A model generated the notes under the pieces. That model was not told the DNA's origin and searched no databases. It was given only the letters and a program-made list of their open reading frames with translations. From a virus (lineage: Duplodnaviria; Caudoviricetes): DNA of 64,000 nucleotides. The translations under genes and the position numbers were made by a program. The stretch is taken from positions 10,891-74,890 of IMG/VR virus record IMGVR_UViG_3300020049_005939; one strand, written 5' to 3'. This document shows, one piece after another, positions 3 to 62,873 of the stretch (positions are counted from its first letter, which is position 1; each line of letters starts with the position of its first letter).

Positions 3-176
3 GGTACTCCGACTAAGGTGAATACAACATGCCATACTAAATATTTTATTTCTATAGTAAGAGGCAAAAGAATATATGTCATTAATGGCATACCCACAAC
101 AAAAGAAGAATTCTATAAACAATTTCGCGATGAACCTATTAGAATAATGAGAAAAATATTTGATGACAAGGATTAA
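3..176 (+). CDS. 5'-truncated small ORF carrying the shared C-terminal helix
   Basis: Open frame from window start, ...TTKEEFYKQFRDEPIRIMRKIFDDKD*; read by hand, not in the ORF track. Confidence 0.65.
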   Translation, partial: GTPTKVNTTCHTKYFISIVRGKRIYVINGIPTTKEEFYKQFRDEPIRIMRKIFDDKD

Positions 177-399
177 ATACATCAAACACAAAGGATACAC
201 AGAATCTAAACACTGGTATTTCCTTAATAACACCCTCTACAAGATCTATATCAATGATAACACTTTATATTTAAAATCTATGTCAAATCAATTGACTGTT
301 ATAGAAAAAGATGTTACAATTAGTAAGGCTAAGAAATTAGCTAAAAAATATTTAATGGATAATAAAGTTAAATTTTATGATGGGATTAGATTAAAATGA
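160..399 (+). CDS. hypothetical protein
   Basis: 79-aa ORF coupled to both neighbours by overlapping stop/start. Confidence 0.55.
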   Translation: MMTRIKYIKHKGYTESKHWYFLNNTLYKIYINDNTLYLKSMSNQLTVIEKDVTISKAKKLAKKYLMDNKVKFYDGIRLK

Positions 400-704
400 C
401 TATCTTTCTTTACATCCTTGAGGGTATGTTTGCCTACACCCTAACGGCCTTAGTTATATTTGGATGGTTGACATATAAAGATCCTATGGATGAGAGGATA
501 AACTATTTATTGTCCTGGGTGTGGCCGATCACCTTTTCACTGGCTGTGCTTTTTTGGCTAGTAAAACCATTCAGTTTTGCTTTTACTAGTGTTCAAATCT
601 GGGCGCAAGAGAAACGCAAACAAAGGGACCATTTCTTATCCTTATCTCCAGAAGAACAGTCTAGATATAAACTTCAAAAGAAATTAAAGAATAACTTTAA
701 ATGA
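396..704 (+). CDS. two-TM membrane protein with shared C-terminal helix
   Basis: Two hydrophobic segments; ends YKLQKKLKNNFK. Confidence 0.65.
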   Translation: MTIFLYILEGMFAYTLTALVIFGWLTYKDPMDERINYLLSWVWPITFSLAVLFWLVKPFSFAFTSVQIWAQEKRKQRDHFLSLSPEEQSRYKLQKKLKNNFK

Positions 705-991
705 CACATCATGAATTTGTATCAGCGGATATGCATACGTTAAGAGTAGCAACTAAAAACTATCCTAATGGTGTGCCTGCTTTTTATGAAAAACAAAACC
801 TATATGAATTACATACTAAATATCTCATACACACCTCTCTTCATTGCCCAGATAGCTGGGCAGTTAAAACTCCCTCTGGTTACGTTTCATATTGGCTTAA
901 TGGAAAACAATGCATAACACCCGATGAAATTAATCCAATACTTGCAATGGAAAAAATGAAAGATGTGTTTTCGGACGTAGACGATGATTAA
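701..991 (+). CDS. small protein with shared C-terminal helix
   Basis: Ends MEKMKDVFSDVDDD. Confidence 0.65.
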   Translation: MTHHEFVSADMHTLRVATKNYPNGVPAFYEKQNLYELHTKYLIHTSLHCPDSWAVKTPSGYVSYWLNGKQCITPDEINPILAMEKMKDVFSDVDDD

Positions 992-1397
992 ACTAGAACC
1001 TAACACATTAGTTCAGTCTGCTTCAGGACATGAATGGAAATTCATTGAGTATTACGATGGTGACAAAGAGAAGTGGATGGACATGAAGACTGGACTAGTT
1101 TGGTATGATGTTGAGGATGGTATGATGAATCATCGTAAAGCTATTGAACTATTTAACACTGATGATAAACGATTGCCTACTAAAGAAGAGTGGGAAGAAG
1201 CAGAGAAGCATGAAATTAGATTTGTATTACCTAATTTTGACAATATGTGGTTCTTGTCTTCGTCGGTTCACCCCGGCTTCTCCAATGTCGCCTACGTCTT
1301 CAGTGGGCGGGATGGCGACATCGTCACCGGCCTCCGTGACGTCGCCGGCTATTCGGTTCGTTGTATTTCGAGTAAATCGAAAAGGGCGCGGCGCTAG
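984..1397 (+). CDS. Lcl/DUF1566-like (C-type lectin fold) protein, copy 1, with DGR-like variable region
   Basis: Motifs DMKTGLVW, RLPTKEEW, SSSVHP, SVRC; 3' end is GC-rich and rich in NNC codons. Confidence 0.8.
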   Translation: MIKLEPNTLVQSASGHEWKFIEYYDGDKEKWMDMKTGLVWYDVEDGMMNHRKAIELFNTDDKRLPTKEEWEEAEKHEIRFVLPNFDNMWFLSSSVHPGFSNVAYVFSGRDGDIVTGLRDVAGYSVRCISSKSKRARR

Positions 1398-1443
1398 CGT
1401 GGAATAATCATAAGATGCTTAAGAAACTTAAGGATATCTTTTA

Positions 1444-1731: not shown

Positions 1732-2080
1732 ATACTTTAAATTAGCAAAAAAGATGTCCAAGTTTAGCACCCATTCCCAGCATCAATTGGGAGCGGTCAT
1801 AGTTCGTAAAACTCAAATAGTTGGGTTAGGTTTTAATCAAATTAAAACTCATAGCAAAAGCCCCCATCCATATAAGTCTATACACGCAGAGTTCTCTGCT
1901 ATTCTCAATAGTGGAGAATCTGATCTAAAGAATCACGATATTTACATCTATAGAGAAAAGAAAGATGGAACACTGGGAGATTCTTTCCCTTGTACAGTTT
2001 GTCTTAAAATGTTAACAGATCTTAACATAGGTAACATCTTTTACATTAAAAATAACCAATTTGAGAAGCATCGTGTATAA
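1721..2080 (+). CDS. cytidine/dCMP deaminase-family zinc protein
   Basis: HAE (SIHAEF) and PCxxC (FPCTVC) zinc motifs. Confidence 0.85.
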   Translation: MKLKYFKLAKKMSKFSTHSQHQLGAVIVRKTQIVGLGFNQIKTHSKSPHPYKSIHAEFSAILNSGESDLKNHDIYIYREKKDGTLGDSFPCTVCLKMLTDLNIGNIFYIKNNQFEKHRV

Positions 2081-2348
2081 ATCGGGGTATTGTATAGATG
2101 GGTGGCATTCTAAGCGATATTACATATTTAATGACGTAATGCTCATTGGTAGAAAAATCCAAAGATCGGCTTTAGTCGCTTCTAATGCTACTCATTGGAG
2201 TGTCATTTATGACAAGTATAATTGTTTTTTCTTAGTAAATGGAGTAACGGATAAAAAACACTTGACAAGAATTTCTATAAAAAAAGAGTTGCAAAATAGA
2301 AAACTTAAACATATACTCATAGATGTCTTTAAGGAGGACAAAGAATGA
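2061..2348 (+). CDS. small protein with shared C-terminal helix
   Basis: Ends RKLKHILIDVFKEDKE. Confidence 0.55.
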   Translation: MRSIVYKSGYCIDGWHSKRYYIFNDVMLIGRKIQRSALVASNATHWSVIYDKYNCFFLVNGVTDKKHLTRISIKKELQNRKLKHILIDVFKEDKE

Positions 2349-3418
2349 AACCAACTAAGATTTTTGATATGATGGATTTGGCAATGCGAGCAAGGGATTT
2401 GGGATTAACCTTTAACCCCCTTTTTGTGGGACCCCCGGGGTTAGGTAAGTCGGAGATTGTTCAACAATGGTGCGGTAAAGAGAAGATTCCATTTATTGAT
2501 CTACGAGCTGCTCTTTTGGAAGCTCCCGATCTAATCGGCTTCCCTGTTGTAACAATGATCGCCGGTAGACAGACCACCGTACACGCTACGCCCGACTTTT
2601 GGCCTACAGAAGGCAGAGGAGTCATCTTCCTCGACGAAGTTAATAGGGGAACTACAAGCGTTATGAACTGCTTCATGCAGCTACTAACTGATCGTAAAGT
2701 TAAACAATACACCCTTCCACAAGGATGGGTTGTTGTTGCGGCCATTAACCCTGAAAACGCGGAGTATGACGTTAATACTATGGACCCAGCTCTTCGAGAT
2801 CGATTTGAGCTATTTGAAGTATCTTATGATAAGTCTTCTTTCATGGAATTCATGAAGTCTAATGACTGGGATAAATCTGTAGTCAATTTTATCGAATCTA
2901 ATGTGTGGCAATACGTTCGACCAGAAGAGTTGAGCAATGTCCCTGGAGCTAAGTACCTATCTCCACGAACCTTCTCAAAGCTCAACACTGCGCTTAAAGC
3001 GGGTATTAACTCTAAAGAAGATGAATTGATTATCTTTGAATCAGTTCTCGGACGAAATACAGGCTCTTCTTTCTTTCATTTTCGACATAACGAGTCTCCT
3101 GTGCTATTTAAAGACTTAGTTACCGATACTAAGAATGCTCTTAAGAAACTCAAGAAGTACAGCAATCCTGAGGATCTTAAGAATGGATACATCAGTGTTA
3201 CTGTTAAGGATATTATCGAGAATGATGGAGAACCAACTTTAATCACTGACGAACTGTTGATTGATATCCTTAAGATTATTCCTGCTGACCAAGCTCCCCA
3301 ATTGGTATTGGACCTAGCCCTTAAACGCGGCGACCATAAAGGGGAAATCTTCGAACGACTTAAGAAAGATAAAGATCTTAAGAAGCTACTTTCTACTATA
3401 CTTCACCATAAAGGGTAG
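2345..3418 (+). CDS. MoxR-like AAA+ ATPase
   Basis: Walker A GPPGLGKS, Walker B IFLDEVNR, AAINP sensor, DPALRDRF arginine finger. Confidence 0.85.
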   Translation: MKPTKIFDMMDLAMRARDLGLTFNPLFVGPPGLGKSEIVQQWCGKEKIPFIDLRAALLEAPDLIGFPVVTMIAGRQTTVHATPDFWPTEGRGVIFLDEVNRGTTSVMNCFMQLLTDRKVKQYTLPQGWVVVAAINPENAEYDVNTMDPALRDRFELFEVSYDKSSFMEFMKSNDWDKSVVNFIESNVWQYVRPEELSNVPGAKYLSPRTFSKLNTALKAGINSKEDELIIFESVLGRNTGSSFFHFRHNESPVLFKDLVTDTKNALKKLKKYSNPEDLKNGYISVTVKDIIENDGEPTLITDELLIDILKIIPADQAPQLVLDLALKRGDHKGEIFERLKKDKDLKKLLSTILHHKG

Positions 3419-3446: not shown

Positions 3447-4670
3447 ATGGAAGATCTAAAGGGAAGACAACTAGCATCTGCTATCTATAAACTGCTGAGT
3501 GATGAACCTTTCTATGGGGCATTCTTACAATCGTTAACTATTTTTTATAGTGAAATGGTTCCGACTGCCGCTATCTTTTTTGATAAACATTCTAAAGAAT
3601 TTAAAATTACTATCAATGATAAATTTTTTAATTCATTAGTGTTGGACGAAAAGGCTGGGGTTCTTCACCATGAGGTTCTTCATTTTGTTCATAAACACAT
3701 GCTTCGTTTATTCACAAGCGAATGTATGAATGATAGAAATGAAATGATGTTGAGAAATGTCGCCGCTGATATGGCAATTAATCAACAGATTAAAGTCTTA
3801 CCTAAAGATTGTGTAGATTATAAAAAATGGAAACTTAAGTCGGGAGAAATTTTTCCACCCAACCAAACTTCTGAAACTTATTTAGATTTGCTTCGTAACA
3901 ACAAAGAAGCCAATAAAGATAAGTTTAAGCAAAAAGGTGAAGATGGCGAGGATGGAGAACCAGGAGAAGGGGAAGGTGTTTTCGATAAACATTTCTACGA
4001 TAGTCTTACTGACGAAGAAAAGCAAAAGTTTCTAGATGAATCTAAAAAACTGATTCAAAGAAGCATTGAGAAATTGAATCACGATTACTCAAAGGTGCCT
4101 CAATCCGTTAAAGATCTTCTACAAGACATTGATGGGATGAATACTAATATTAATTATAAACAGATTCTTAAGAATGCTATTAAGAAAACTGTGTCTTGCC
4201 AGGATAGGTCCAGCACATGGAAACGTCCAAACAAACGGTACGGAGTGTACTCCCCCGGAACAAAGCTTGGTAATCTACCGCAATTAGATTTCTATATTGA
4301 CACTTCGGGTAGTATTTCTTACAAAGAACTTAGTTCATTTTTAAATATTATGAATGAGTTTTTGAAGGTTGGTGTAAGAACTTGCGATCTGTTCTTGTGG
4401 CATACGTCTGTATATAAACATAAGAAACATAAAAAAAATAACCCATTTAAAGAAAATGAAGTTGAAGCGGGTGGGACTGACATCAGCGAAGCGATGGCTT
4501 CTATTAAGAAACGTAGACCCGACCTTGCCATTATTTTAACCGATGGATACTACGAGATGGCTAATGTGGCAATCGACTCTCAAGTAATCTTTATTATCTC
4601 CGAAGGAGGCAATATGAATCACCCATTAGCTAAAATTGGAAAGACTATTGGATTTGGTGGATTAAAATGA
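3447..4670 (+). CDS. metallopeptidase-vWA protein (DUF2201-like), partner of the AAA
   Basis: HEVLH zincin motif, acidic/Gly linker, MIDAS IDTSGS, GGTD and ILTDG. Confidence 0.85.
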   Translation: MEDLKGRQLASAIYKLLSDEPFYGAFLQSLTIFYSEMVPTAAIFFDKHSKEFKITINDKFFNSLVLDEKAGVLHHEVLHFVHKHMLRLFTSECMNDRNEMMLRNVAADMAINQQIKVLPKDCVDYKKWKLKSGEIFPPNQTSETYLDLLRNNKEANKDKFKQKGEDGEDGEPGEGEGVFDKHFYDSLTDEEKQKFLDESKKLIQRSIEKLNHDYSKVPQSVKDLLQDIDGMNTNINYKQILKNAIKKTVSCQDRSSTWKRPNKRYGVYSPGTKLGNLPQLDFYIDTSGSISYKELSSFLNIMNEFLKVGVRTCDLFLWHTSVYKHKKHKKNNPFKENEVEAGGTDISEAMASIKKRRPDLAIILTDGYYEMANVAIDSQVIFIISEGGNMNHPLAKIGKTIGFGGLK

Positions 4671-5065
4671 AAAAACTAGAGCCTAATACATTAGTTCAGT
4701 CTGTCTCTGGTCATCAATGGAAGTTCATTGAATATTACGATGGTAATAAAGAAAAGTGGATGGATGTGCAGACTGGACTAGTTTGGTATGATGTCGAAGA
4801 CAAGTCAATGGATCATTATAAAGCTATTGAACTATTTAACACTGATGATAAACGATTACCAACTAGAGAAGAGTGGGAAGAAGCAGAGAAACATGAGATT
4901 AGATTTGTATTACCTAATTTTAACGATAAGCGGTTCTGGTCTTCGTCGGTTCACCCCGACTACTCCTATTACGCCTACTACTTCGTTGGGCGCGGTGGAG
5001 GCTTCGGCCACGGTGTTCGCGGCTTGGTCTACGACGGTTCGGGCCGTTGTGTGGGAAAACTATGA
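4667..5065 (+). CDS. Lcl/DUF1566-like protein, copy 2, with DGR-like variable region
   Basis: N-terminal ~85 aa nearly identical to copy 1; WSSSVHP followed by a divergent GC-rich tail. Confidence 0.8.
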   Translation: MKKLEPNTLVQSVSGHQWKFIEYYDGNKEKWMDVQTGLVWYDVEDKSMDHYKAIELFNTDDKRLPTREEWEEAEKHEIRFVLPNFNDKRFWSSSVHPDYSYYAYYFVGRGGGFGHGVRGLVYDGSGRCVGKL

Positions 5066-5247
5066 AAAACACTATACTAGAATATAACACTGGTGAATAT
5101 CTAGGTCAACTTGGTGAGAATCGATTTCTCTTTACAAAAGGTTCCACTAACCATATACTATTTACAATGAAGTCAGAAAAAGAAATCCTTTTTGATTTAG
5201 CTAAAAAACAATTAGAGGAAGTGTTTAATGATGAAGAAACTGATTAA
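5062..5247 (+). CDS. small protein with shared C-terminal helix
   Basis: ATGA overlap with copy 2 suggests a start at 5062; ends LAKKQLEEVFNDEETD. Confidence 0.6.
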   Translation: MKNTILEYNTGEYLGQLGENRFLFTKGSTNHILFTMKSEKEILFDLAKKQLEEVFNDEETD

Positions 5248-5764: not shown

Positions 5765-6160
5765 ATGAAACGTAAATACTACAAAGAAGACTTTATAGAA
5801 TTAAAATTACCTAACTTAAATTCTTTAAGGGGTTCAACTAAAAAACAAATGGGACCTATGGAAAAACTCCAAGATTGGTTTATTAAAGAAGTTGGATTAG
5901 AAACTGCTAGAGGTTCTTGGTTAAAGCTTCATCTCCGATTAGAAGAAGAAAAAAAGATTGACAAACTTACTTACAAGTATTGTAAATCTAAATACCCTTG
6001 GGTAACTAGACAAGGTGCAAATTCAGCAGTGGCCATGTATAATCTACAACTTGCTCCCGCTAGTTTTTTATCAAACCCTAAATGGACCCGGAAGGGTTAC
6101 GCTTATCTTAAAAAAGAACCAATTGATAAACTGAAAGAGGCATTTCCATATGAAGTATAA
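5765..6160 (+). CDS. hypothetical protein
   Basis: 131-aa ORF; KLKEAF near the C-terminus is a weak match to the shared helix. Confidence 0.55.
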   Translation: MKRKYYKEDFIELKLPNLNSLRGSTKKQMGPMEKLQDWFIKEVGLETARGSWLKLHLRLEEEKKIDKLTYKYCKSKYPWVTRQGANSAVAMYNLQLAPASFLSNPKWTRKGYAYLKKEPIDKLKEAFPYEV

Positions 6161-9907: not shown

Positions 9908-10650
9908 AAAAAAATAAATTAGAAAAGATTCTTATTGTTAGTGATACCCATCGACCTTACCATAATAAAAAAGCGTGGGCTTTGATGCTAAGGGCAGCAA
10001 AAGAATTCAAACCTGATACGGTTGTGATTATGGGAGACTACGCAGATTTTTTTGACGTGTCTTCCCACTCTAAAAGTCCTGAACGTCGGTTTCAATTAGC
10101 TGAAGAGATTGCCGATGTGAAGGTCGGCCTACAAGAATTGAAAGATCTGGGAGCAAGTAGACAAATTTTTATTGAAGGTAACCACGAAAATAGACTAGTT
10201 CGGTACCTAGCCGATAAAGCTCCCGAACTGTTTAAACTAATTAACATACCTGATATTTTAGAACTTAAGAAGTTTGACTTTGAATATGTTCCTTATAAAG
10301 AATACACCACTATTGGTAAGATGAATTTTACCCACGATCTAGGACAAGCAGGCAGAACGGCTCACCTAAAGGCTTTGGATAGCTTCCAAGACAATATTAT
10401 CATTGGACATGTTCATCGTATGCATTACTCTGTTGAAGGCGATGCTAAGGGCGTTAAGCATCTCGGAGCTTCATTTGGTTGGCTTGGTGATGAAAATGAA
10501 GTTGATTATATGCATAAGGCAAAGATTAAACGCGAATGGTGTTTAGGATTTGGTATTGCATACCATAATAAAACTACTGGCAATGTTTATGCTGTTCCAG
10601 TTCCTATTATTGAAAATACTTGTCTTATTGAGGGTAAATTAATTAAATGA
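9904..10650 (+). CDS. calcineurin-like metallophosphoesterase
   Basis: SDTH, GDYAD, GNHE, THD, GHVH. Confidence 0.85.
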   Translation: MKKNKLEKILIVSDTHRPYHNKKAWALMLRAAKEFKPDTVVIMGDYADFFDVSSHSKSPERRFQLAEEIADVKVGLQELKDLGASRQIFIEGNHENRLVRYLADKAPELFKLINIPDILELKKFDFEYVPYKEYTTIGKMNFTHDLGQAGRTAHLKALDSFQDNIIIGHVHRMHYSVEGDAKGVKHLGASFGWLGDENEVDYMHKAKIKREWCLGFGIAYHNKTTGNVYAVPVPIIENTCLIEGKLIK

Positions 10651-11268
10651 TTAAGTTCATTTACACAGAAGGGTCAAAATTTTATATTGTCGGCGAAATC
10701 TGTGTAAGAAAATTATTATATGAAACTGAAGAAATATATGATGACGAACGACTTAGAAATCTTATGGTTCACAATCACTATTTCAACAATACAGTTTACG
10801 CCATTGAATGTAATCCAGATAAAGAGCATAGATACTTTATTCCTGGGGATCTGACCGGTAGCGTTGCTTCAATTGTATCAGAAGAATTATTCCGGCATCA
10901 TTGGAAAGAATATAGACTAAAACAGAAAATGAAGGACATATTCAATGAGTAACCAAAACTATTACACCGTTTATTCCCATGCCGTATCCTCTAACGATAT
11001 CACCATTGGAACTTCAAGTACAACACCAAATACAAATTTATCAGTGGAGGACCATTTACGACGCGAGTTAAAATCAACGTCCTTAAATTTTAAAGATTTT
11101 AGAATGAGATATGTAACAAATGATTACCCATCGGCTTATAATAGTTTTTATGAATATAAATTTGTAAATGAACATACTGAATATAGATATAAAACAACTT
11201 ACGATTTAATATCCTTTATTAAAGAAGAACAAATGAAAGAACTTATGAAAGAGACATTTAATGAGTGA
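10647..11268 (+). CDS. two small proteins with shared C-terminal helix (10647-10952, 10945-11268)
   Basis: End YRLKQKMKDIFNE and EQMKELMKETFNE. Confidence 0.7.
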
Positions 11269-37821: not shown

Positions 37822-37840
37822 TATATTATCTCCTAGAGCT

Positions 37841-37869
37841 AGTATAACAAAAGAAAAGGCAGAAGTCAA
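37841..37869 (-). promoter_or_regulatory. sigma70-type promoter for the GIY-YIG gene
   Basis: TTGACT-17 nt-TATACT with TG extension. Confidence 0.65.
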
Positions 37870-51246: not shown

Positions 51247-52698
51247 TTATTTTCTTTTCCTTATATTGAAAATTTTATTATAAATTTCAACAGAATTTTC
51301 GCCTACTCGGTTAAAGGCATCTTTATTACGAACGTATAAATCTTGTTTATTGTACCCGTACATGGCTGGGTAAGGGTTTTTTTTAAACTGAACTTGTCTA
51401 ATTAGGTATTTACCCGCATCTAAAGCATCGTAATGCCCATCATCAGGGGAACGCATGAGCTTCCCGCTCTTTCTATCGCGTTTACCGTTCTTTAAATGTC
51501 GGATGAAGGTTTCACAACGAGGGTTTATAATGATTTTTTGATTTGAAAGCTTTACTCTAAAGTCGTTGAAGGCGGCATCATTGTCGTCTTTCTTAGCCGC
51601 ATCAAAAAAGAGTCGGCCATCAGACACTCTCTGTAATTCAGAGGTTACAATGTAGTTAATGTCACTTACCCTATTTGGGGTTCTTAGTTCACCTGTCAAA
51701 ACATTAGTCCAAAGGTCTGCTTCTTTTTTAAGAATGTCTGCTGCTAGATTAGGAAGCTTTAAATCGATTCCTTTTACAACAATTTCATCTTCAATAACTA
51801 CTTTATCAGATCTAAAATCGTAATATCCAAATAAAACAACGGTAAGATCCTTATATCCAAGATCCATAGAAACATACGAATCAAAATGAGGAGGTTTTGG
51901 CCAATCTTTTACAATTAGTTTCTGTAAATCTTCATTAAATTCTGGAAAGACTACACTTTCTTCATCTCTAATAACTTCACAGAGATATTCACGTCGAAAT
52001 TTAGGTGCTGTTACCCCACCCATCTCACGGATAATACGATCTACTTGTTCTTTACTTAAAAGAGGATTATCAAAGATAGTTTTTTTAGTTAAAGTTCCAT
52101 TAAGATCAGCTTCTTCAATAAATTTATTAAAATCGTGATCGGGATCGGAATGCGGGGTAGAAGCTAAAACAATTTTACCATTAGTGTGAGTAGTAGTTGG
52201 TAATAAAACTGATTTAACAACGTCTTCAAGCTTATCACAGAAACCTGCTTCATCTACCAGCACTAAGTGAGACTTCTGACCCCTTAGACGCTCGTAGTGC
52301 CCGCCATCTGATCCGGCTAATTGAATCTGACTACCATTACTGAAGTAATAAGTAAACTTACTTTCATTGTATTTTGGTTTTAAGTCATCAGGACAGTCAG
52401 CCATTACTTCATCAAAGAGTTTTTCAAAGATTGAACGAACGTGAAGCTTAGTATCAGTCATTAATTTAATAATACTGTCTGGGTGACGGATAGCTTGTTC
52501 TAAAGCTAGGATAGAAAGTAAGTAGGACTTGCCTGTCTGGCGAGCTAGGAGCCAAACTAACGTGCTATTCCCAGGAGATGAATAAAATAAATCATACATC
52601 TCTGCTTGAACTTTATGGCATTTGAATTTAAGAATTCCTCGTCGCCACAGTTCAGCAATAGCTTGTTCTTTATTTATTTTTAGTGTCTGGGTTTTCAT
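51247..52698 (-). CDS. terL: terminase large subunit
   Basis: ARQTGKS Walker A, LRG..VDEAGF Walker B, SMDLG and D..DA nuclease acidic residues. Confidence 0.92.
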   Translation of the reverse strand: MKTQTLKINKEQAIAELWRRGILKFKCHKVQAEMYDLFYSSPGNSTLVWLLARQTGKSYLLSILALEQAIRHPDSIIKLMTDTKLHVRSIFEKLFDEVMADCPDDLKPKYNESKFTYYFSNGSQIQLAGSDGGHYERLRGQKSHLVLVDEAGFCDKLEDVVKSVLLPTTTHTNGKIVLASTPHSDPDHDFNKFIEEADLNGTLTKKTIFDNPLLSKEQVDRIIREMGGVTAPKFRREYLCEVIRDEESVVFPEFNEDLQKLIVKDWPKPPHFDSYVSMDLGYKDLTVVLFGYYDFRSDKVVIEDEIVVKGIDLKLPNLAADILKKEADLWTNVLTGELRTPNRVSDINYIVTSELQRVSDGRLFFDAAKKDDNDAAFNDFRVKLSNQKIIINPRCETFIRHLKNGKRDRKSGKLMRSPDDGHYDALDAGKYLIRQVQFKKNPYPAMYGYNKQDLYVRNKDAFNRVGENSVEIYNKIFNIRKRK

Positions 52699-53100: not shown

Positions 53101-53337
53101 TTAAGAGAAAACCGATTTTAGTTTTTTCAACATTTTTTGTTCTAATCGAATAGATCTGATTAGTTTTTCAAGTTCATCAGTTTTTTTGTGATGAAAAGTT
53201 ATTGGTTCTCCTCTAAAAAGAAGAGTTAAATAAATTAATTTTTTAGTTATCTTGCTTCTAACTAAAGTTTTAGAATTAATATCTTCATCTTTAATTAAAG
53301 GAATTTTTAACCAAGGGGTTAGATCAAAAGTTCCCAT
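53101..53337 (-). CDS. small protein with shared C-terminal helix
   Basis: Ends IRLEQKMLKKLKSVFS. Confidence 0.55.
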   Translation of the reverse strand: MGTFDLTPWLKIPLIKDEDINSKTLVRSKITKKLIYLTLLFRGEPITFHHKKTDELEKLIRSIRLEQKMLKKLKSVFS

Positions 53338-53715: not shown

Positions 53716-53744
53716 TAAGTTGTTAAATCGAAATTAACAACTAT
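53716..53744. promoter_or_regulatory. back-to-back late promoter motifs (53716-53726 on -, 53734-53744 on +)
   Basis: AGTTGTTAA-N7-TTAACAACT inverted repeat between the divergent terminase operon and endolysin. Confidence 0.65.
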
Positions 53745-54191: not shown

Positions 54192-54602
54192 TTAGCGCCG
54201 CGCCCTTTTCGATTTACTCGAAATACAACGAACCGAAACCCAGCCGTTGAAACGGTCAAAAACAAAGTCTCCACCGCGCCCATCGAAGATGTAGGCGTAA
54301 TAGGAGTAGTCGGGGTGAACTGACGAAGACCAGAACCACTTATTATTAAAATTAGGTAATACAAATCTAATTTCATGCTTCTCTGCTTCTTCCCATTCTT
54401 CTTTAGTAGGCAATCGTTTATCATCAGTGTTAAATAGTTCAATAGCTTTATAATGATCCATTGACTTGTCTTCGACATCATACCAAACTAGTCCAGTCTT
54501 CATATCCATCCACTTTTCTTTATTACCGTCATAGTACTCAATAAATTTCCATTGGTGACCGGAGACAGACTGAACTAATGTGTTAGGTTCTAGTTTAATC
54601 AT
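54192..54602 (-). CDS. Lcl/DUF1566-like protein, copy 3, with DGR-like variable region
   Basis: Same scaffold as copies 1 and 2; tail SVRCISSKSKRARR identical to copy 1. Confidence 0.8.
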   Translation of the reverse strand: MIKLEPNTLVQSVSGHQWKFIEYYDGNKEKWMDMKTGLVWYDVEDKSMDHYKAIELFNTDDKRLPTKEEWEEAEKHEIRFVLPNFNNKWFWSSSVHPDYSYYAYIFDGRGGDFVFDRFNGWVSVRCISSKSKRARR

Positions 54603-55174
54603 TGAACATTCTCTTTAACTTAGTTTCTAATTTCTTTTTAGATTGAATTTTCCTGTAATTAGAAATATCTACCCAATACATAGCATTGGTTGGATCTGCC
54701 CATCTAATAGATTCTTCTTTACTTAAAAAGAAACATTCTTTGCCGGGGGTTGGTTTGTTCCAATATTCATAGTATAAAGAATGATTTTGACCAAATAGAT
54801 CGTCTTTTTTATACCCGTAACAAACTACAACATTACCAACTGCATATATTTTATGTCCACAATGATAAAAGAATTTAATCATTAAAGCTATCCCTTAGCT
54901 TATTTTCTAATCTCCACTTTTTAATTAACTCAATAGCTTCTTCTCTAGAAATTCTATTGTTCTCTATAGAAGTAATCCATCTTTCGCCCAAATCGTTATC
55001 CCATCTTCTGTACGTGGCACAATCACCTGGATTTGTACTAAACAATGGGTGGAAATCGATAAACACAGTAATCATATCCTTATTATTTGGTCCGTATACC
55101 GGAACTAAAGACGACGCGGCCAGTACATACTCAACAAATCCAACTTTAATTCTTGGATAAGGAGATTTACTCAC
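54595..55174 (-). CDS. two small proteins with shared C-terminal helix (54595-54882; 54875-55174, GTG start)
   Basis: End KLETKLKRMFND and ISREEAIELIKKWRLENKLRDSFND. Confidence 0.7.
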
Positions 55175-55397
55175 TGTCTTCCCAGTCGAAAACAACCATT
55201 CCATTAAAAATGCTATCAGGATTGGCAGCCTTATAACGATAAGGTTCAGGTAACATGCCCATCTCCTCGGCTTCATGTAAAAGTGACGCAGCTATGTAGT
55301 CCATGGGTGGATAAATTACTTCATTAGTAAGCGGATCTACTGAGGATATTTGCTCAAGTCTTTTAACTAATCTATCAATCATCTCACTTTTTTTCAT
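55167..55397 (-). CDS. hypothetical protein
   Basis: MKKSEMI...GMLP...W small-phage-protein pattern. Confidence 0.5.
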   Translation of the reverse strand: MKKSEMIDRLVKRLEQISSVDPLTNEVIYPPMDYIAASLLHEAEEMGMLPEPYRYKAANPDSIFNGMVVFDWEDSE

Positions 55398-55647: not shown

Positions 55648-55922
55648 TTCACCTTTTTATACAATTTTCTCATACTAAAATCAATAGGTAAAGCATTTTC
55701 TTTTTCTATTTTAAAATAATCTTCAAGTGTTAATTTTAATTCACAATTAATCTTGTCGTGAACAGTTCCAAGTCCAATAATCCTATCCCTGGTATGGTTC
55801 TTTAGATCATCGGTTTGAGCTTTGTGGTACACTTGATCCAATGCTGTTATTTGTTGTTGTAAAACTAGAGCTTTATGCACGTTATTAACTATTGATTGTT
55901 TTAAATTCACTATGTCAGTCAT
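55644..55922 (-). CDS. coiled-coil hypothetical protein
   Basis: 92-aa helical ORF. Confidence 0.5.
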   Translation of the reverse strand: MTDIVNLKQSIVNNVHKALVLQQQITALDQVYHKAQTDDLKNHTRDRIIGLGTVHDKINCELKLTLEDYFKIEKENALPIDFSMRKLYKKVK

Positions 55923-56696
55923 TGAACACCTTTTTCATCTTTAGTTTAAGTTGCTCTTTACCTAGTTCAGATACGAGTTCTTTGCTACTCATAAGGAAAG
56001 GAACCTCCCAATTGTATTCTTTTTTACCTTTTTTGAAGATAATCAACTCGGTTACTTCCGAGTATAACCCAGGATTGAAAAACTGATAAGCACCCAGGAA
56101 ATGTTTATAGGTTAACTTATTCTCTTCCATAAAGTCTTGTAGTTCTTGGTATGTAGATGCCATAGTTGGTTCCTTGGGTACTGAAAAGGTTTTGGTTGTA
56201 TGATTAGTCACTGAATACATTTTTTATTTTCAATTTTAATTGTTCTTTTTGAATATAATCAATTATAGTAAGACAATGCTCTTTTGGGGCGCAGATTAAA
56301 ATTAAAGAGTTGTTTTCTTGTCTCTTAAATGATAAACCAAAGTCTGATTCTTCGTAATTGACACTATCAAATTTATCAATTGATATATTAAAACCTTTAA
56401 TTAATATTCTAAAAGCGTCAAAATGGGTTATTATATTTGGAATAGTATAGATATGATTAAACAACATCGAATATCCTTTTCATTTTCTTTTTAAGCTCTT
56501 CTCTAATTTGTTCCTCTTTAACAATCTTTAAAGTTTCTTCACCAGAAAACAAATGTAATATTCTACGTGCATAACCTTTAACTGTCAGCTCACACTCGGA
56601 TTCTTCAAGTGAATCAACGGCAATAATACTCTCAAAAGTAAGTCCATTGTCCTCTAACCATACTCTAAGTACCGTTTTATTTTCTAGTGTATCCAT
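55915..56696 (-). CDS. three small proteins with shared C-terminal helix (55915-56220, 56204-56467, 56457-56696)
   Basis: End EQLKLKMKKVFND, EQLKLKIKNVFSD, EELKKKMKRIFDVV. Confidence 0.7.
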
Positions 56697-56901
56697 AGAA
56701 TAAATTTAATTCCTCTATCTTCTTTTTGATTTCATCAGTCATGCCATATTCTTGTGCTAAGTAATTACATATAACAATTAATGGTACACCAGTTCCTAGA
56801 GCCATCTTGTTAAGAAGATCATTAAAATCAGAATTAGGATTATGGGTTTTAATAATCTTAATTCTTTCAAAAGTATTCTTATAGTTCTCCATCTTATACA
56901 T
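56677..56901 (-). CDS. hypothetical protein
   Basis: 74-aa ORF coupled to RNR. Confidence 0.5.
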   Translation of the reverse strand: MYKMENYKNTFERIKIIKTHNPNSDFNDLLNKMALGTGVPLIVICNYLAQEYGMTDEIKKKIEELNLFYGYTRK

Positions 56902-59630
56902 TATATATCACATACTCCAGAAATACAATCATCAATATGAGCGGCTTCTGCTTTATAAAGCTCGTTAAATCTTTTTTTGGCTTCATCTAATGAATGAGCA
57001 ACTAGCGGAGGCTCATGAGTCTTACCATATTCATCGATATAACCCCTGGTCCCTTCTCTATAAAAAGTTGTTCCTTTAAGGTGGGGAAGATACTCAAGCC
57101 ACAGCTCTTCCATCTCATCCATAGAAGCATTATTAGGGATGTTAATGGTCTTAGATACTGAAGAATCGACATGTCTTTGGACAGTCTTCTGCACTTCCAA
57201 ATGATCTTTAATTGAAAGCTCATAAGAACTAATAAAATGATCAACATTCTTACCATCTTTCATAAACTGCTCAAAGATTGGATGTAATAACTTCTGCACT
57301 TTACGTTCGTCGCCCTCCCAATACCTACGGTCATAGGCGGCAGCGAAGGCAGGCTCGATCCCCGATGAGCAATTACCCGAAAGAATCGACACAGTTCCAA
57401 CCGGAGCAACTGTGAGTAATGTACAATTTCTAATTCCATGTTCTTTAACTAGAGAACGAATTTTATTTGGCATTCTTTTCATAAATCCCGATTCGATAAA
57501 TTTATCTGGTTGACAAAGAGGAAAGGGACCTTTCTCAATTGCAAGCATCACTGAAGCTTCGTATGCTGCTTTGGAAATAAATCTATAGAGTTTATCAATA
57601 AATTTATTAGCTTCTTCTGATCCATATCTAAGCCCTAGAAGCATGAGGCAATCGGCTAATCCAGTTGTTCCCAACGCGATTCGTCTAAGGTTATGGGACA
57701 CTTCCTTCATTTCTGGGAGAGGATAATGATTAACGGTGAGAACATTATCTAAAAATCTAACGGATGTTCTAATAGTTTCACCCAATAAAGCATAGTCAAT
57801 TTGATTATCATTGATAAATCGAGGAAGAACTAGATGACCTAAATCGCAAGATTCATATGTTGTAAGAGGCAATTCACCGCATTGCCCCGTAATAACTCCA
57901 TTAAAAATACCCATATGTTTTTTTGGTTCAGTAAAACAATACACTGTATCAGCAACACCAGAATCGGTAATATCCGTAACGGTTATAAATTGGCTAGCAT
58001 CCCGTTGGGGAGTTTTGTCGAAGGACATTCTTTCGCAAGATAACCCGAGATCTTTGAGTTTTTGCATTTGAACTGCTCCTAAACACACCCTATAACAATC
58101 TTTACATAAGTAATCCTTAGACCCCCCGTGTCCATCGGGCATAGATCTATATCCAGCCTTGTTTGCTACAACAACCTTACTTTGAACACCTAAAGTTGAA
58201 AGTAATTTTTGTGTGTTCAATAAAAAATCTCTATCAATGGATGCTAACTGAAGACCACCTTCCTTTAATTCGGTGCCATCCCCGTCAAATAGTCCAGAGA
58301 GCCAATCTAATTTAGACTTTAAATCATAATCCAAAGGAACAAAATTTTTAGAAAATAAATCGTGCTTATGAGAAAATCTTGCTAATTTTCCATTAGGATT
58401 ATATGATATTTTTCCTTCGTCATTTAATAATCTTGAAATACATTTGAATTTGGGTTCATAAACTTGAAACCATCTATAGCCCTCCATTCCTTCAGCAGAA
58501 TAGAACCCTTGAAGATACGCAGTTTTAAGCATTTTCCCATGCTCAATAATAGGAAAATCATGTTTAATTAATTTCATCCCAGGAAGTAGGTCCCTGGCTT
58601 CGACTATTTTTGATTCTCCCGAGTATCCCTGAGCTATATGAAATTTATGATAATCTGTACAAGTTAGGGTTCTACCGTCGCTAAATGTAATGGTAACAAT
58701 TGATTGATTTTTTCCAGTGACACGAGGGGTGACTCTACTCCATTCAACCCCATTCCAGACTTCAATTGATTGATCGATTAATTCATCGATTCTAATGTAA
58801 CCATCTCTAGTTAAAATTTCGGTTTCCCCGATAACACAAGGATTAGTCGTAACTAGTTGTTTTGTATAAGAAATATTACTTTCTGATTCTACTAATTCCC
58901 AATTTAAAAATCCAGGTTCGGCTGAATTATAAGCATTAGCTACAATAGTTTTCCAAATATCTCTAGCTTTAACCGATTTTTTATATTTACCTTTCCAACT
59001 TAACTCCCAATCTAAATCATTCTTCACCGCTTTAATAAATTCTTTAGTTCTTTTAGAGCGAACTGAAACATTAGCATGAGTTAGTTGACCTTTAACCAAT
59101 TTGGCATCCAAAAATTCAGGAAGATCAGTATGATCTAGGTCTAAAGAAAACATTAAAGCTACTCGCCTTGATCCTGCGCTCTTAATCGGAGGTGCACATC
59201 CATCAATAAGTCGCATTAATTCAACTGGGCCAGGAGCAACTCCTTTTTGACCTTTAATTTCAGATCCCTTTGGTCGAATCTCAGAGAAATCATCACCACA
59301 ACCACCCTGTGACATAGAAGTTACAATCATATCCGAGGCACTTCTACCCCACCCTTCCTTTGAATCTTTATCGGGATTAAGAACAAAGCAATTTAATAGA
59401 GATGGATTTACCCTACCTGAACTATACCAAATCCGCCCACCTGGGGCAAATAGATTTTTAGTCAAAACGTCGTAAAACTTATCTTCATATGTCTTCTGTT
59501 TAGAAGGTTCTTCAGCTAAGGTCATTTGTTTAGATAATCTTAAACAGGCTTCCTCCCATGTTTCAGTTTCGGTAAATGCGTACCGTTCTCTAAAGATCTT
59601 TTCAGAGTATCCCATCGGCTTAAATGACAT
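56901..59630 (-). CDS. nrdJ: class II (B12-dependent) ribonucleotide reductase with intein
   Basis: PGGR, NCFV, NP|CGE after intein removal, SSGIEP, C-terminal CISGVC; no NrdB/NrdF seen. Confidence 0.88.
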   Translation of the reverse strand: MSFKPMGYSEKIFRERYAFTETETWEEACLRLSKQMTLAEEPSKQKTYEDKFYDVLTKNLFAPGGRIWYSSGRVNPSLLNCFVLNPDKDSKEGWGRSASDMIVTSMSQGGCGDDFSEIRPKGSEIKGQKGVAPGPVELMRLIDGCAPPIKSAGSRRVALMFSLDLDHTDLPEFLDAKLVKGQLTHANVSVRSKRTKEFIKAVKNDLDWELSWKGKYKKSVKARDIWKTIVANAYNSAEPGFLNWELVESESNISYTKQLVTTNPCVIGETEILTRDGYIRIDELIDQSIEVWNGVEWSRVTPRVTGKNQSIVTITFSDGRTLTCTDYHKFHIAQGYSGESKIVEARDLLPGMKLIKHDFPIIEHGKMLKTAYLQGFYSAEGMEGYRWFQVYEPKFKCISRLLNDEGKISYNPNGKLARFSHKHDLFSKNFVPLDYDLKSKLDWLSGLFDGDGTELKEGGLQLASIDRDFLLNTQKLLSTLGVQSKVVVANKAGYRSMPDGHGGSKDYLCKDCYRVCLGAVQMQKLKDLGLSCERMSFDKTPQRDASQFITVTDITDSGVADTVYCFTEPKKHMGIFNGVITGQCGELPLTTYESCDLGHLVLPRFINDNQIDYALLGETIRTSVRFLDNVLTVNHYPLPEMKEVSHNLRRIALGTTGLADCLMLLGLRYGSEEANKFIDKLYRFISKAAYEASVMLAIEKGPFPLCQPDKFIESGFMKRMPNKIRSLVKEHGIRNCTLLTVAPVGTVSILSGNCSSGIEPAFAAAYDRRYWEGDERKVQKLLHPIFEQFMKDGKNVDHFISSYELSIKDHLEVQKTVQRHVDSSVSKTINIPNNASMDEMEELWLEYLPHLKGTTFYREGTRGYIDEYGKTHEPPLVAHSLDEAKKRFNELYKAEAAHIDDCISGVCDI
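57882..58838 (-). mobile_element. intein (319 aa) with LAGLIDADG endonuclease
   Basis: Starts CVIGETEILT, ends VYCF...FNGVITGQ before +1 Cys; blocks LQGFYSAEG and LSGLFDGDG. Confidence 0.9.
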
Positions 59631-59632
59631 TG

Positions 59633-59929
59633 TTATTCCTCCAGTTGTTGATTAAAAATTGTTTTTAGTTTATCTTTTAGTCTTAATTGTTTAATTTCTT
59701 TTTTTGTTACTATCATACTTGATGTAACTGGAATACTAATTATCCAATAAGTTTTAATAGCATTAAAATCACCAATTTGATATTTAAGATTGTTATCCAT
59801 TCTAAAGTCTGTACATTTTTGACACACTTCACTCGTATAGAAATAATCAGATTGTTCTGTTCGTTTCAATGCACAACAATCGTTTAAAATGTAAAATTTA
59901 TAACCTGGAATTTTAACAGTTCTATACAT
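59633..59929 (-). CDS. small protein with shared C-terminal helix
   Basis: Ends QLRLKDKLKTIFNQQLEE. Confidence 0.65.
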   Translation of the reverse strand: MYRTVKIPGYKFYILNDCCALKRTEQSDYFYTSEVCQKCTDFRMDNNLKYQIGDFNAIKTYWIISIPVTSSMIVTKKEIKQLRLKDKLKTIFNQQLEE

Positions 59930-59931
59930 TA

Positions 59932-60441
59932 TTAATTGACTTCTAATAGATCGAGTTTTCGATACTCACTATCAATATAATTATCACATTTCTTATTTAG
60001 ATAGTCAATCAATTGTTGATTTAATTCTTGTAAAGAAACAGGCCCAACTGACTCATACATGAAATGCTTAGGATCTGGATTATGAGGTTCATTAAAAGAA
60101 CAGTGAACTAACTCATGAGCCATAGTCCCATACCTATCGGCTTCTGAAGCAGTGTCCCACCATTCCTTATCGAATGAAACATGGTAACTAAGTAAAGTCT
60201 GTTCACATAAACCAACCCAGATCTTCTCTCCATACCTACCAACTTCAGCTTTAGCAAAGTTTACCTTTGTTTTTGGAGGATAAAAAATCTTATTAGACGG
60301 ACAATGCGTATTAATTAAGTTTATTGAATACTCATAGTACCGAACTAACGAAGGTTCAACATAATGAACTGGAGTAATAGCGTAGGACACGGTAGCCATT
60401 AATGTTGTTATTAGAAAAAGATGCATTTTATTTGATTTCAT
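59932..60441 (-). CDS. exported metzincin/matrixin-like metalloprotease
   Basis: Signal-like N-terminus; HELVHCSFNEPH then HFMY (Met-turn). Confidence 0.7.
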   Translation of the reverse strand: MKSNKMHLFLITTLMATVSYAITPVHYVEPSLVRYYEYSINLINTHCPSNKIFYPPKTKVNFAKAEVGRYGEKIWVGLCEQTLLSYHVSFDKEWWDTASEADRYGTMAHELVHCSFNEPHNPDPKHFMYESVGPVSLQELNQQLIDYLNKKCDNYIDSEYRKLDLLEVN

Positions 60442-60661
60442 TTAGGCTCTTTCTAATCTGCCTACGTTCGTGAGCTTTCTGTTTCATTTTAACCTGGTGG
60501 CATCCGGGGCATACCCGACCATTCCAAAGGAGTTGGTTCTCATCAACCCATCGTTTATTGATGTTATCAGTAAACTTACCCGATTGAATTCGATTTTTCA
60601 TCTGATTACAGACTTTACATTTAGTTAAATTAGATTCTTGCATAAGATTAGCTCTTGACAA
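60428..60661 (-). CDS. zinc-ribbon protein
   Basis: CKVC...CPGC. Confidence 0.5.
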   Translation of the reverse strand: MSRANLMQESNLTKCKVCNQMKNRIQSGKFTDNINKRWVDENQLLWNGRVCPGCHQVKMKQKAHERRQIRKSLNEIK

Positions 60662-61092
60662 TTCTTTCGATTTTTTCTATTTGTTTATAGTATTTACTAC
60701 ATTCATGATCTAGCTCTTCTATTAGTAATTTTAATTCTCGACAAAGAGCTTTAAAGGCTGATATGCGAGATTTTCCTTTACCTTCTATTTGAGTTAATTT
60801 ATTATTTATTTTTACATTAATAGTTTCGCTAAAAAAGTTAGTTTCTTCATCAAGATCAATCATTCAATTTACTCCAATTCTTACTTTGTACAATTTCAGT
60901 ATCATTTGGATCTAAGGCGTCTAGAGTGCATCCGGGTACCAAAGGATTTGAACTGATATGAGAAATATACAGCATATTCTTGTATTTAATAACGGTTTTA
61001 TACATATAAAATTTTTTTCTTCTAGGTCCTATAAAATGGAAAATCTTAAGAATATCGAATTCTTCAATCGTTATGCCATTTTTATCAACCAT
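60648..61092 (-). CDS. two hypothetical proteins (60648-60863; 60856-61092, YopX-like start)
   Basis: GGAGG-preceded ATG at 61092 gives MVDKNGITIEEFDIL. Confidence 0.45.
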
Positions 61093-61093
61093 C

Positions 61094-62873
61094 TTATTCC
61101 TCCGAGAAGACTTCTTTAAGTTTACATTGTAATTTGTGATTTGTAAAGAGATTTCTATAACCTTGTTTATCATAATAATAATTTTCATATCTTCTATATG
61201 TATGTCGAAAACTATAAGATTTATATAAAAAAAATGTGTTTGGCTCATAAGACAACAGTCCTTTATTTTTTATAGCAACTCGTTTTATATTAAACAGCTT
61301 ACCAATTTTACCGTATTTATATAACACATGAGAATTAGCTATAATCCGGCGTCCTACGACGTGGCCGACGGCGATCTCCTTAAAAAATTCATTTCGAAAT
61401 CTATCGTAATAATACTCAACCTTAATCATTAAACATATCCTTCATTTTCTTTTTTAATCCCTGTTTATGTAAAAATTTAACAGCTTCCTCTCTACTAACT
61501 TCATTTATTCCCATTTGATACCCCAATCCTTCGGATGAAACTTCAATCATAAATTTAGGAACCTTTGAATTATATTCATCTATAATAAATTCAATAAATT
61601 CCCCATTCGGCACAGGCCACGAGAACAATGCGGGCCTAGATCTCAAAGAACCAGATCTAATCCAATATCTGATTTGTCCTATAACAAAAACTAAATATGT
61701 TCTATTACTGTATACAGCAGTATTACTCATTAAATACCTTCTCTAAATTTCTTTTTAGTCTTAATGCCCTTAAAAACTCGATAGCTTCTTCCCTAGAGCA
61801 AATGGTACTATTAAAACGCGAAGTGACAATTTCATACGTCATACCCAATCCGGGACCAAGAACAGTCTCAGACTCAACATATAGTACCTCTACATATGGA
61901 AAATTATAATTACCGGCGTGTCTATACGACTCTGTGTCCGATTCTATCTTATAAAAGACATTCCCTACAGCCGTACTAGCGTAAGAGGGCAATACCCGTT
62001 GACTATAAAGTTCTTTAAGTATACTACTCATATTCAAATTGTTTCTTTAACTTTTTTTCAAGTTCTATTATTTTTAGGTTATTAACCGCTTCTTGTCTTG
62101 TTATAGCTGTGGCTCTAAAAAATCCATCGCCTTTTTTTGGACGCATTTGATACGTAACTACCCTATCCTTTAAAATATAAACAGTGATCTTGCCTCTTGG
62201 TAAGTTAAATCCATCACTATTAGTATTCAGTCTATCTGCTTGAATAATATATGCAACATTTTCAAACTCTAAAATAGTATGAAATTCGCAGATTACTGGT
62301 TTCATTTAAATATTCCCTTTAACTTATCTTTCAATCTAGCTTTTTTTAACCAGTCTATGGCCTGTTTTCTAGTTAAAGGATTGCTAGGGTCATATCTCCC
62401 ATTTGTATAATTATTTAAAGCGTACTCCTCAATTTCGTGCCTTGAACTAACTTCAATGTCTATAAACCCACCCGCACAGTCCGGGCTAATCCATGCTTCC
62501 AGTTCATTATTAGAATATGGTCCCCCAGAGTAGGGTATTCGATGCCAATACCTAGTCCTACCCACGCACACTAATCGCCAACTGGAATTACGGTCAACCT
62601 TCATCTAAACACCTTCTTCATTATTTCCTTTTGTCTCCACTCCTTTAGAAGTCTATGTACCACATCCCTTTCCACGGGCACCCAATCGCCGCCACTACGC
62701 CACATGACATGGAACTCTTTACGAGCATCCATAATGTCACACACAATGAGTGGATACTTCCTAACATCATAAGTCACATACTTCATTTCATCACCCTTGT
62801 AATTAAATACTATAAGTCTACCAATCCTAATAGACCTGCTAGAACCATCATTATAAAAAGGTTCCACTATCAC
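61094..62873 (-). CDS. six tandem small proteins with shared C-terminal helix (61094-61429, 61422-61730, 61723-62037, 62024-62305, 62302-62604, 62601-62873)
   Basis: End KLQCKLKEVFSEE, GLKKKMKDMFND, RLKRNLEKVFNE, ELEKKLKKQFEYE, RLKDKLKGIFK, RQKEIMKKVFR. Confidence 0.75.

Follow-up and report, generated by a model that had tools for sequence, protein, structure and literature searches.

About 29 small proteins of an uncultured tailed phage end in one conserved C-terminal helix, a putative interaction module on variable heads

Why should some 29 small proteins of a single phage, with N-terminal parts of several types, all end in the same C-terminal helix? This question was raised by a stretch of 64,000 nucleotides (the window), bases 10891-74890 of one linear 74,890-bp IMG/VR virus record (IMGVR_UViG_3300020049_005939; CheckV completeness 87%), which belongs to an uncultured tailed phage of 75-85 kb. 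Plain coordinates are window positions, and those marked L005 or genome are positions in the whole record. The explanation that we favored, to which we gave about an even chance of being correct, was that these proteins form a lineage-specific, fast-evolving set in which variable heads sit on a shared C-terminal interaction helix.

In the window, a regular expression and the listing of all C-termini found 27 small open reading frames (ORFs; 66-133 amino acids) that end in [KR]-L-x-x-K-[LMI]-[KR]-x-[IV]-F, the box, whose invariant Phe is numbered 0. This is followed by a tail of 1-6 mostly acidic residues, which varies from member to member (K, S, ND, NE, SEE, DET, DDKD, NQQLEE, SDVDDD). Two extra members were found just upstream of the window (L005:10565-10822, and the first window ORF, which truly starts at L005:10812), and genome 8735-9034 also ends in LKYRMKRKFK. 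The set totals about 29 proteins, which is roughly one-fifth of the ORFs and 7.8 kb of the 74.9-kb record.

A hidden Markov model (HMM) of the 13-residue block scored every member at 6.9 bits or more, compared with 5.0 bits for the best other six-frame ORF (1,350 ORFs searched), and its matches all ended 1-6 residues before the stop. In leave-one-out scoring, 18 of the 27 members were still above 5.0 bits (17 of them at 6.4 or more, and 5765-6160 at 5.3), and seven to nine were weak on the box alone (1-176, 1444, 2061, 5047, 10945, 53101 and 61723, with 55384 and 62024 borderline). When the last 22 residues of 80 small ORFs were shuffled 2,000 times, a procedure that preserves their lysine-rich composition, the mean number of motif matches was 0.40 for the relaxed and 0.05 for the strict form (maxima 3 and 2), against 22 and 15 observed. 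The motif was absent from the C-termini (last 22 residues) of 47 large proteins, both pieces of the family B DNA polymerase (PolB) included, and their 16,662 residues contain two relaxed matches overall. These results agreed with the first-pass annotation of this DNA, made from its letters alone, which had counted about 26 such ORFs in the same clusters and had named shuffled lysine-rich small ORFs as the control.

The conservation was not limited to the hydrophobic positions, since the polar face was also kept, with K at -5 in 21 of the 27 members and at -3 in 20. The helix start described earlier as [ST]-x-E-E-[FA] was present upstream of the box in the helix profile, as an N-cap [ST]-x-[ED]-[ED]-[FA]. 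Together with this start, the box makes up a shared helix that is 19-25 residues long, [ST]-x-E-E-h-x-x-x-h ... L-K-x-K-[LM]-K-x-[IV]-F-N-[DE]. Among the ORFs outside the set, the 224-amino-acid product of 62870-63544 (minus strand), the first gene of the leftward block, has a box-like end (...RKKMRDVV) with Val in place of the invariant Phe, and it had no Pfam or PHROG match. A 79-amino-acid ORF at 160-399 (plus strand) carries a hairpin-like N-terminal motif (…YKIYINDNTLYLK) that resembles subfamily A, defined below (5.9 bits), and lacks the box; by its sequence it may be a decayed member. The capsid-module protein 40941-41879 (ending ...TIRQMFGI) was considered as a scaffold-like bearer of the box and rejected, as it has the five-residue core only and its HMM score was below background.

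The members in the window, together with one orphan box, were as follows.

1-176, plus strand: member, subfamily A; ATG at L005:10812, 78 nt before the window; ends ...IRIMRKIFDDKD; weak box, 1.5 bits leave-one-out
396-704, plus strand: member, singleton head with two transmembrane-like segments; ends KLQKKLKNNFK; 9.4 bits
701-991, plus strand: member, singleton head; ends MEKMKDVFSDVDDD; 7.3 bits
1376-1444, plus strand: orphan box, 22-codon frame ending HKMLKKLKDIF-stop; 15.8 bits
1444-1731, plus strand: member, subfamily A; weak box RLTLKLMNSFDET
2061-2348, plus strand: member, subfamily A; weak box KLKHILIDVFKEDKE; the MoxR-type AAA gene begins before this ORF ends
5047-5247, plus strand: doubtful member, singleton head; KKQLEEVFNDEETD; 1.9 bits
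5765-6160, plus strand: doubtful member, singleton head; IDKLKEAFPYEV; 5.3 bits
10647-10952, plus strand: member, subfamily A, best box match; RLKQKMKDIFNE; 15.5 bits; AlphaFold2 model 1
10945-11268, plus strand: member, subfamily B
35839-36054, minus strand: member, subfamily A, last gene of its cluster; full box KLKTKLKDIFKD; 15.5 bits
36047-36325, minus strand: member, subfamily A
36315-36533, minus strand: member, subfamily A, minimal form of 72 amino acids; 16.2 bits; AlphaFold2 model 2
36526-36807, minus strand: member, subfamily A
53101-53337, minus strand: weak member, singleton head; 4.4 bits; behind the late-promoter-like motif at 53716
54595-54882, minus strand: member, subfamily A
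54875-55276, minus strand: member, singleton head with one N-terminal hydrophobic segment; ISREEA...-type helix; 8.8 bits
55384-55647, minus strand: member, subfamily B
55915-56220, minus strand: member, subfamily B
56204-56467, minus strand: member, subfamily B
56457-56696, minus strand: member, subfamily B
59633-59929, minus strand: member, subfamily A; tail NQQLEE holds the GGAGGA Shine-Dalgarno sequence of the ribonucleotide reductase (RNR) gene
61094-61429, minus strand: member, subfamily A; centre replaced in a 97%-identical strain, both ends kept
61422-61730, minus strand: member, subfamily A
61723-62037, minus strand: member, subfamily A
62024-62305, minus strand: member, subfamily A
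62302-62604, minus strand: member, subfamily A; 22 non-synonymous changes from the sister strain, all in codons 23-83 of 100
62601-62873, minus strand: member, subfamily A

The heads had been taken for unrelated in the first-pass annotation, since pairwise phmmer comparison sees just two weak pairs among them; nevertheless, 22 of the ~29 fall into two families. Subfamily A comprises 17 members with a common layout. Their N-terminal hairpin has the pattern G-x-K-[FY]-Y-[IV]-x-G-[ND]-[IV], and they also share other aromatic strand motifs as well as the helix. Subfamily B comprises five members (10945, 55384, 55915, 56204 and 56457) with the N-terminal motif h-x-x-h-L-x-x-N-x-L-x-h-x-x-F. The remaining heads, about seven, are singletons. 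They include two membrane proteins, namely 396-704, with hydrophobic segments at residues 2-25 and 37-63, in line with the two-transmembrane member reported before, and 54875-55276, with one such segment. The hairpin, with its x-I-Y ... Y-I-x-G pattern, raised the possibility of a GIY-YIG nuclease, which was rejected because no member had such a Pfam match, while a true GIY-YIG gene of the phage (37039-37869) was detected at 1.5e-10.

When the profiles of A and B were aligned with hhalign, the last 19 columns aligned and nothing else did (E 6.5e-6), and profiles stripped of the helix matched only members of their own subfamily. The shared element is therefore a module of 19-25 residues carried on several head types. 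Hence, the earlier proposal of a constant helix on variable heads stood for the helix, which is found on at least two head families and two membrane proteins, but not for the heads, most of which are not unrelated.

The 3' ends of these genes could also be kept as DNA, either as a ribosome-binding site with an overlapping start or as recombination junctions for the shuffling of cassettes. At the very tail this is partly the case, as had been cautioned before: 15 of 27 tails read AATGAnTAA/TGA/TAG, so that N-[DE]-stop carries the ATG of the next gene in an 8-nt overlap, and in about five members AAG-GAY at -3/-2 gives AAGGA some 8 nt before the next ATG. The junction also sets the start of the next protein (M-I-K, M-S-N, M-T-R), and such fixed starts mark units that were duplicated in tandem, each running whole from ATG to ATG. 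The ATG of a member still follows the orphan box at 1376-1444, and gene gain and loss and one head swap took place at such junctions. The last two codons, and partly K-D, are thus additionally constrained by the start codon and the ribosome-binding site of the next gene.

In the rest of the box, however, the evidence was of another kind. Nucleotide information was highest at codon position 2 (0.43/2.0/0.52 bits for the three codon positions at -4, and 0.42/1.18/0.68 bits at -8), pairwise identity by codon position was 0.54/0.68/0.45, with third positions free, and NG86 synonymous divergence (dS) across 13 box codons was saturated in 58% of 351 paralog pairs. Leu at -8 was drawn from both codon families (CTT 6, TTA 8, CTA 5, TTG 1) and Phe from TTT (17) and TTC (10), so the varied codons noticed at first sight were real, and the choice of Leu and Lys codons was that of the whole genome (AAG share 0.29 genome-wide, 0.29 at -5 and 0.45 at -3; p 0.13). 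Furthermore, the box persists where no gene overlaps, since 35839-36054 carries it in full without an overlapping downstream start, whereas the other translationally coupled genes of the phage lack it. The codon-position-2 peak, the genome-like Leu and Lys codons and the saturated dS indicated that the helix is kept by selection on the protein. This comparison of codons and protein, which the first-pass annotation had proposed, left a DNA-level constraint only at the very end: it accounts for positions -3 to +2 at most and is largely refuted for -9 to 0, and as the explanation of the whole box it is barely credible.

A sister strain (ENA ERZ22157953; L002, L003; 89-97% DNA identity) was used to follow the change of these genes, in one strain pair. 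Five family genes showed 59 non-synonymous and 18 synonymous differences from the sister strain, compared with 26 and 38 in three neighboring non-family genes (Fisher p 1.5e-5). The ratio of non-synonymous to synonymous rates (dN/dS) was 0.26-3.0 in the family genes (0.58-3.0 in those four that had at least two non-synonymous and two synonymous changes) and 0.08-0.22 in the neighbors. None of the 59 non-synonymous changes fell in the last 13 codons of the family genes (p 3e-4). In 61094-61429 the central ~235 nt are swapped for an unrelated 196 nt, with the first 18 nt kept at 99.5% and the last 83 nt at 83%, and this 83% identity in the helix region, against 95-99% in the flanks, is a further point against conservation as DNA. 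The heads change fast between strains and the helix does not. Adjoining this swapped member, two small genes (~60856-61092 and 60648-60863; window 60644-61093, minus strand) are absent from a 95-99% identical strain in L002, and 60644-61093 is a clean cassette indel.

The orphan box at 1376-1444 was the sole strong match when 1,936 short frames were scored. It follows the stop codon of a lectin-like Lcl_C gene (984-1397) immediately, in another frame, and overlaps the ATG of 1444-1731. An independent JGI assembly has the identical sequence at this place. As the box survives out of frame, and the sister lectin copy at 54192-54602 shares its DNA exactly up to the start of the box, a cassette took the place of a family gene here and spared only its last 14 codons. 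The phage has three to four Lcl_C-like (DUF1566-type) paralogs, at 984-1397 (plus), 4667-5065 (plus), 54192-54602 (minus) and genome 13-261 (L005), whose first ~95 residues are nearly identical and whose last ~40 differ strongly; their Pfam Lcl_C match (1.3e-5) was below the cut-off.

Turnover of this kind recalls the hyperplastic regions of T4-like phages, where clusters of small, phylogenetically variable early genes turn over by gain, loss and exchange of cassettes (PMC4122927). In both cases cassettes turn over at conserved junctions among closely related phages. At the T4-like junctions stand the PeSLs, DNA motifs that combine a promoter with a stem-loop, lie between genes and are conserved as nucleotide sequence (PMC4122927), whereas the element described here is coding and kept as a peptide, with third positions free and synonymous sites saturated.

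The distribution of the family was then assessed. A subfamily A profile searched against 1.84 billion representative proteins recovered the phage's own proteins, those of near-identical strains and a few extras, namely two diverged members on short metagenomic contigs (P0019, and P0018, which adjoins an endonuclease VII gene) and a probably spurious match to one long repetitive protein. A helix-only profile searched against 5.8 billion proteins recovered this phage lineage alone, and word-indexed protein searches agreed on this limit. Pfam and PHROG scans of all members gave no family match, although Pfam, run on 25 aligned members, yielded scattered hits below threshold, each to an unrelated family; in PDB sequence profiles neither the helix nor subfamily A matched anything below E 0.7; and the best feature score in the ESM Atlas was 0.77, below the useful range. 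Judged by these searches, the family appears restricted to this phage lineage and undescribed.

AlphaFold2, with the paralogs as alignment, predicted for the 36315-36533 protein strands at residues 4-9, 12-17, 28-31 and 36-39 and a helix at 49-69 (mean predicted local distance difference test, pLDDT, 73.9; predicted template modeling score, pTM, 0.59). The model of the 101-amino-acid 10647-10952 protein had an overall pLDDT of 58, with confidence confined to a sheet at the N-terminus and the helix at the C-terminus; the helix was confident in both models (pLDDT 74-89). Foldseek with both models found no match in PDB and BFVD at E 0.001 or better, and a VIA fold search with the models reached a best Z of 4.5, with PipX at 4.1, within noise.

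In these models the helix lies beside a 4-stranded sheet, as would be expected if the set were one divergent family of small alpha/beta proteins without a shared partner, in which the helix is the slowest-evolving structural element. Subfamily B and the singletons would then be the same fold diverged past recognition, or chimeras that kept their 3' end by descent. Both ends and the strand layout are common to the 17 members of subfamily A, the tandem arrays with identical 8-nt overlaps point to duplication of whole units, and no partner was found. Nevertheless, the surface lysines and the acidic cap are as strongly kept as the hydrophobic positions, A and B align in the helix only, and membrane proteins also bear it; moreover, the beta-strands, which are equally structural, have diverged to ~10-20% identity. 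We regarded this explanation as possible but doubtful.

The geometry of the helix was calculated on a helical wheel. Over the terminal 12 residues the hydrophobic moment was 0.19-0.65 (mostly 0.4-0.6) with a constant phase (296-25 degrees); the hydrophobic direction of the upstream 12 residues lay at a median of ~190 degrees from that of the terminal 12, and the median 18-residue moment was 0.17. The median net charge over the last 18 residues was +3, versus +1 in control small ORFs.

MinD and FtsA, each a single protein per genome, end in a short amphipathic helix that contains Leu and Phe and is flanked by lysine or arginine. The terminal 10-12 residues of the phage proteins could in the same way be a membrane-targeting helix that recruits many different small proteins to the cytoplasmic membrane, on its inner side. 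Their extreme C-terminal position, the narrow stripe of L, L/M, I/V and F between lysines, the 12-residue moment of ~0.5, the raised net charge and the two members that are themselves membrane proteins would all suit such a role. The low 18-residue moment and the upstream half facing the other way would not, and neither would the acidic residues that end the tail; the MinD and FtsA helices are not known to have an acidic cap, and here the helix runs upstream into a segment with the opposite hydrophobic face. Furthermore, the heuristic of moment and charge cannot separate lysine-rich helices in an AT-rich phage. Membrane targeting was thus considered rather improbable.

A shared interaction helix on variable heads fitted these results in the following manner. 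Tandem duplication, along with the replacement of heads, would have given rise to the set. The helix would pack its first half against the head's small beta-sheet and expose, over its last three turns, a lysine-flanked hydrophobic stripe (L-8, L/M-4, I/V-1, F0) followed by the acidic cap. This stripe may serve as the common handle for one shared partner, which could be either a protein, of the host or of the phage, that has an acidic surface, or else the anionic surface of the membrane, and the variable heads may engage diverse or fast-changing host targets. That the helix acts in its own right is suggested by the retention of the surface lysines and the acidic cap, by its presence on unrelated-looking heads, and by its constancy while the heads turn over. 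One common third party fits better than homodimerization, because a homodimer interface would be expected to diverge among paralogs to avoid cross-pairing, and the 29 helices are identical. When an A and a B member (36315-36533 and 55915-56220, respectively) were co-folded, the interface score (ipSAE) was 0.00, which is evidence neither way on helix-helix association.

Several points weigh against this interpretation. No partner or hub was found for the helix. The helix of subfamily A may be no more than a piece of the fold, and subfamily B and the singletons could share that fold, having diverged beyond detection. The argument from opposite faces depends on the helical-wheel calculation, in which the upstream half is noisy, and should be taken as a model. 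If 54875-55276 were oriented N-in, its helix would be periplasmic, a misfit with a single cytoplasmic hub. The high dN/dS comes from few sites in one strain pair.

In its strongest form, the interpretation of variable heads on a shared interaction helix would be a true adaptor system, in which about 29 different, rapidly diversifying heads plug into a single hub through one helix. We held this to be unlikely. The hub could be the host RNA polymerase, replisome or protease, or a phage partner encoded in the missing 10 kb.

Among phages, the nearest precedent for different heads with one docking tail is that of T4 gp43, gp55 and gp33, whose C-termini dock on the gp45 sliding clamp (PMC2988020). 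In T4, however, three proteins are involved and the motif sits on a flexible linker, whereas here about 29 proteins are involved and the motif ends a predicted 21-residue helix; neither PolB piece ends in the box. The sliding-clamp families PF02916 (DNA_PPF) and PF00712 (DNA_pol3_beta) matched nothing in the record, and Pfam and PHROG scans of its mid-size proteins found no clamp or clamp loader, in a record that is 87% complete. The bacterial beta-clamp-binding consensus is Q-L-[SD]-L-F. The box was rejected as a motif of this type, given that position -4 is L/M/I, -3 is K in 20 of 27 members, and the agreement is limited to [D]-[IV]-F.

The first-pass annotation had drawn a parallel with F-box and BC-box adaptors, which holds as an analogy of architecture, but the members have no F-box or SOCS-box Pfam match. 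Gram-negative bacteria are not known to have Skp1-cullin-F-box (SCF) ligases. By architecture only, the nearest analogue would be the poxvirus ankyrin/F-box (PRANC) family, in which variable N-terminal parts are followed by a short conserved C-terminal helical motif by which all members dock to a single host hub, Skp1 of SCF (PMC4353913, PMC9414399). Both are large viral multigene families with variable heads and a conserved C-terminal helical motif. The poxvirus family differs in its eukaryotic virus and host, its ankyrin-repeat heads and its recognizable F-box, while the phage proteins have no Pfam F-box and a bacterial host.

The setting of the set in the phage was described from the remaining genes of the record, of which the following were placed.

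51247-52698: T4-type large terminase
49149-51245: P22/SU10-like portal
56901-59630, minus strand: RNR with a LAGLIDADG insertion
2345-3418: MoxR-type AAA protein
3447-4670: DUF2201 metallopeptidase/vWA partner of the MoxR AAA protein
13142-13900: ClpP-family protease

Other identified genes encode a GMP-reductase-like enzyme, a dUTPase/dCTP deaminase, a DnaB-like helicase, ERF and a PD-(D/E)XK nuclease. The RNR large subunit probably holds an intein or a homing-endonuclease insertion, as a LAGLIDADG domain lies within it at residues 442-498. By Pfam, the family B DNA polymerase is encoded by two separate genes (L005:254-928 and L005:9031-10569) that lie 8 kb apart in reversed order, one with the exonuclease and the first part of the polymerase domain and the other with the later polymerase motifs.

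A blastn search of a phage collection gave no match to this phage, and a terminase scan of IMG/VR found no relatives; the best match of the terminase was that of a Silvanigrella phage (34% identity), a hint of kinship with phages that infect Silvanigrella-like bacteria. On these comparisons the phage seems to have no close cultured relative. To judge from a PagL-like gene and from the GGAGG-type Shine-Dalgarno sites of the phage genes, a Gram-negative bacterium is the probable host. The phage or near strains of it were found in several JGI and ENA assemblies, one contig with these proteins is 84,930 bp long, and the phage occurs at a low share in DNA runs from sediment, wastewater and biofilm, with short, low-depth contigs; no RNA run was among the matches.

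Most members lie in early-looking blocks, that is, the plus-strand replication and nucleotide-metabolism block and the head of a long leftward unit at 54-63.5 kb, all upstream of the first exact late-promoter-like motif (TTAACAACTTA, at 53716). This motif occurs in four exact copies on the minus strand (40900, 41955, 49119 and 53716), each just upstream of a late-looking gene, and with one mismatch allowed there are 20 sites against 8 expected, and 0 of 100 shuffles reached 20. Four members lie directly behind the capsid gene, and four to five are in the late region overall. The GIY-YIG homing-endonuclease-like gene 37039-37869 (minus strand) stands between the capsid gene and this four-member cluster (35839-36807), and the cluster may have come into the late region along with this gene, as a mobile insert.

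These positions bear on whether the helix could be a shared degradation tag, by which a phage ClpP-like protease and a host unfoldase clear early proteins, or a packaging tag that loads proteins into the capsid interior and the virion. The ClpP-family protease, the MoxR AAA and vWA pair and the four members behind the capsid gene might be taken as signs of such a tag. Nevertheless, the distance from the Phe to the C-terminus varies between 1 and 6 residues and the last residues differ, which makes recognition of the terminus itself unlikely; the degradation tag that had been suggested is thus a poor fit in its free-C-terminus form (ssrA/ClpX, Tsp/PDZ). As to packaging, in a comparison with T4 internal proteins and encapsulin cargo made by reading the genes, all members other than the four to five in the late region came before the first late-promoter-like motif, and no capsid or scaffold protein bears the box. 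Either kind of tag was judged highly improbable.

Small early gene expansions limited to one lineage are the least understood part of phage genomes and a source of anti-defence and host-takeover functions. Here, one-fifth of the genes of a phage form a recognizable set, and the combination of a constrained helix with a part that is changed or swapped between 97%-identical strains provides an experimental handle: a peptide of 20 residues could serve as bait for the common partner, and the heads are candidate diversified host-binding modules. If the helix is a docking module, it would also be a portable tag to send cargo to the hub, and phages, like poxviruses, would multiply adaptors around one hub. 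If true, such an adaptor system would be the bacterial-virus counterpart of the poxvirus ankyrin/F-box families.

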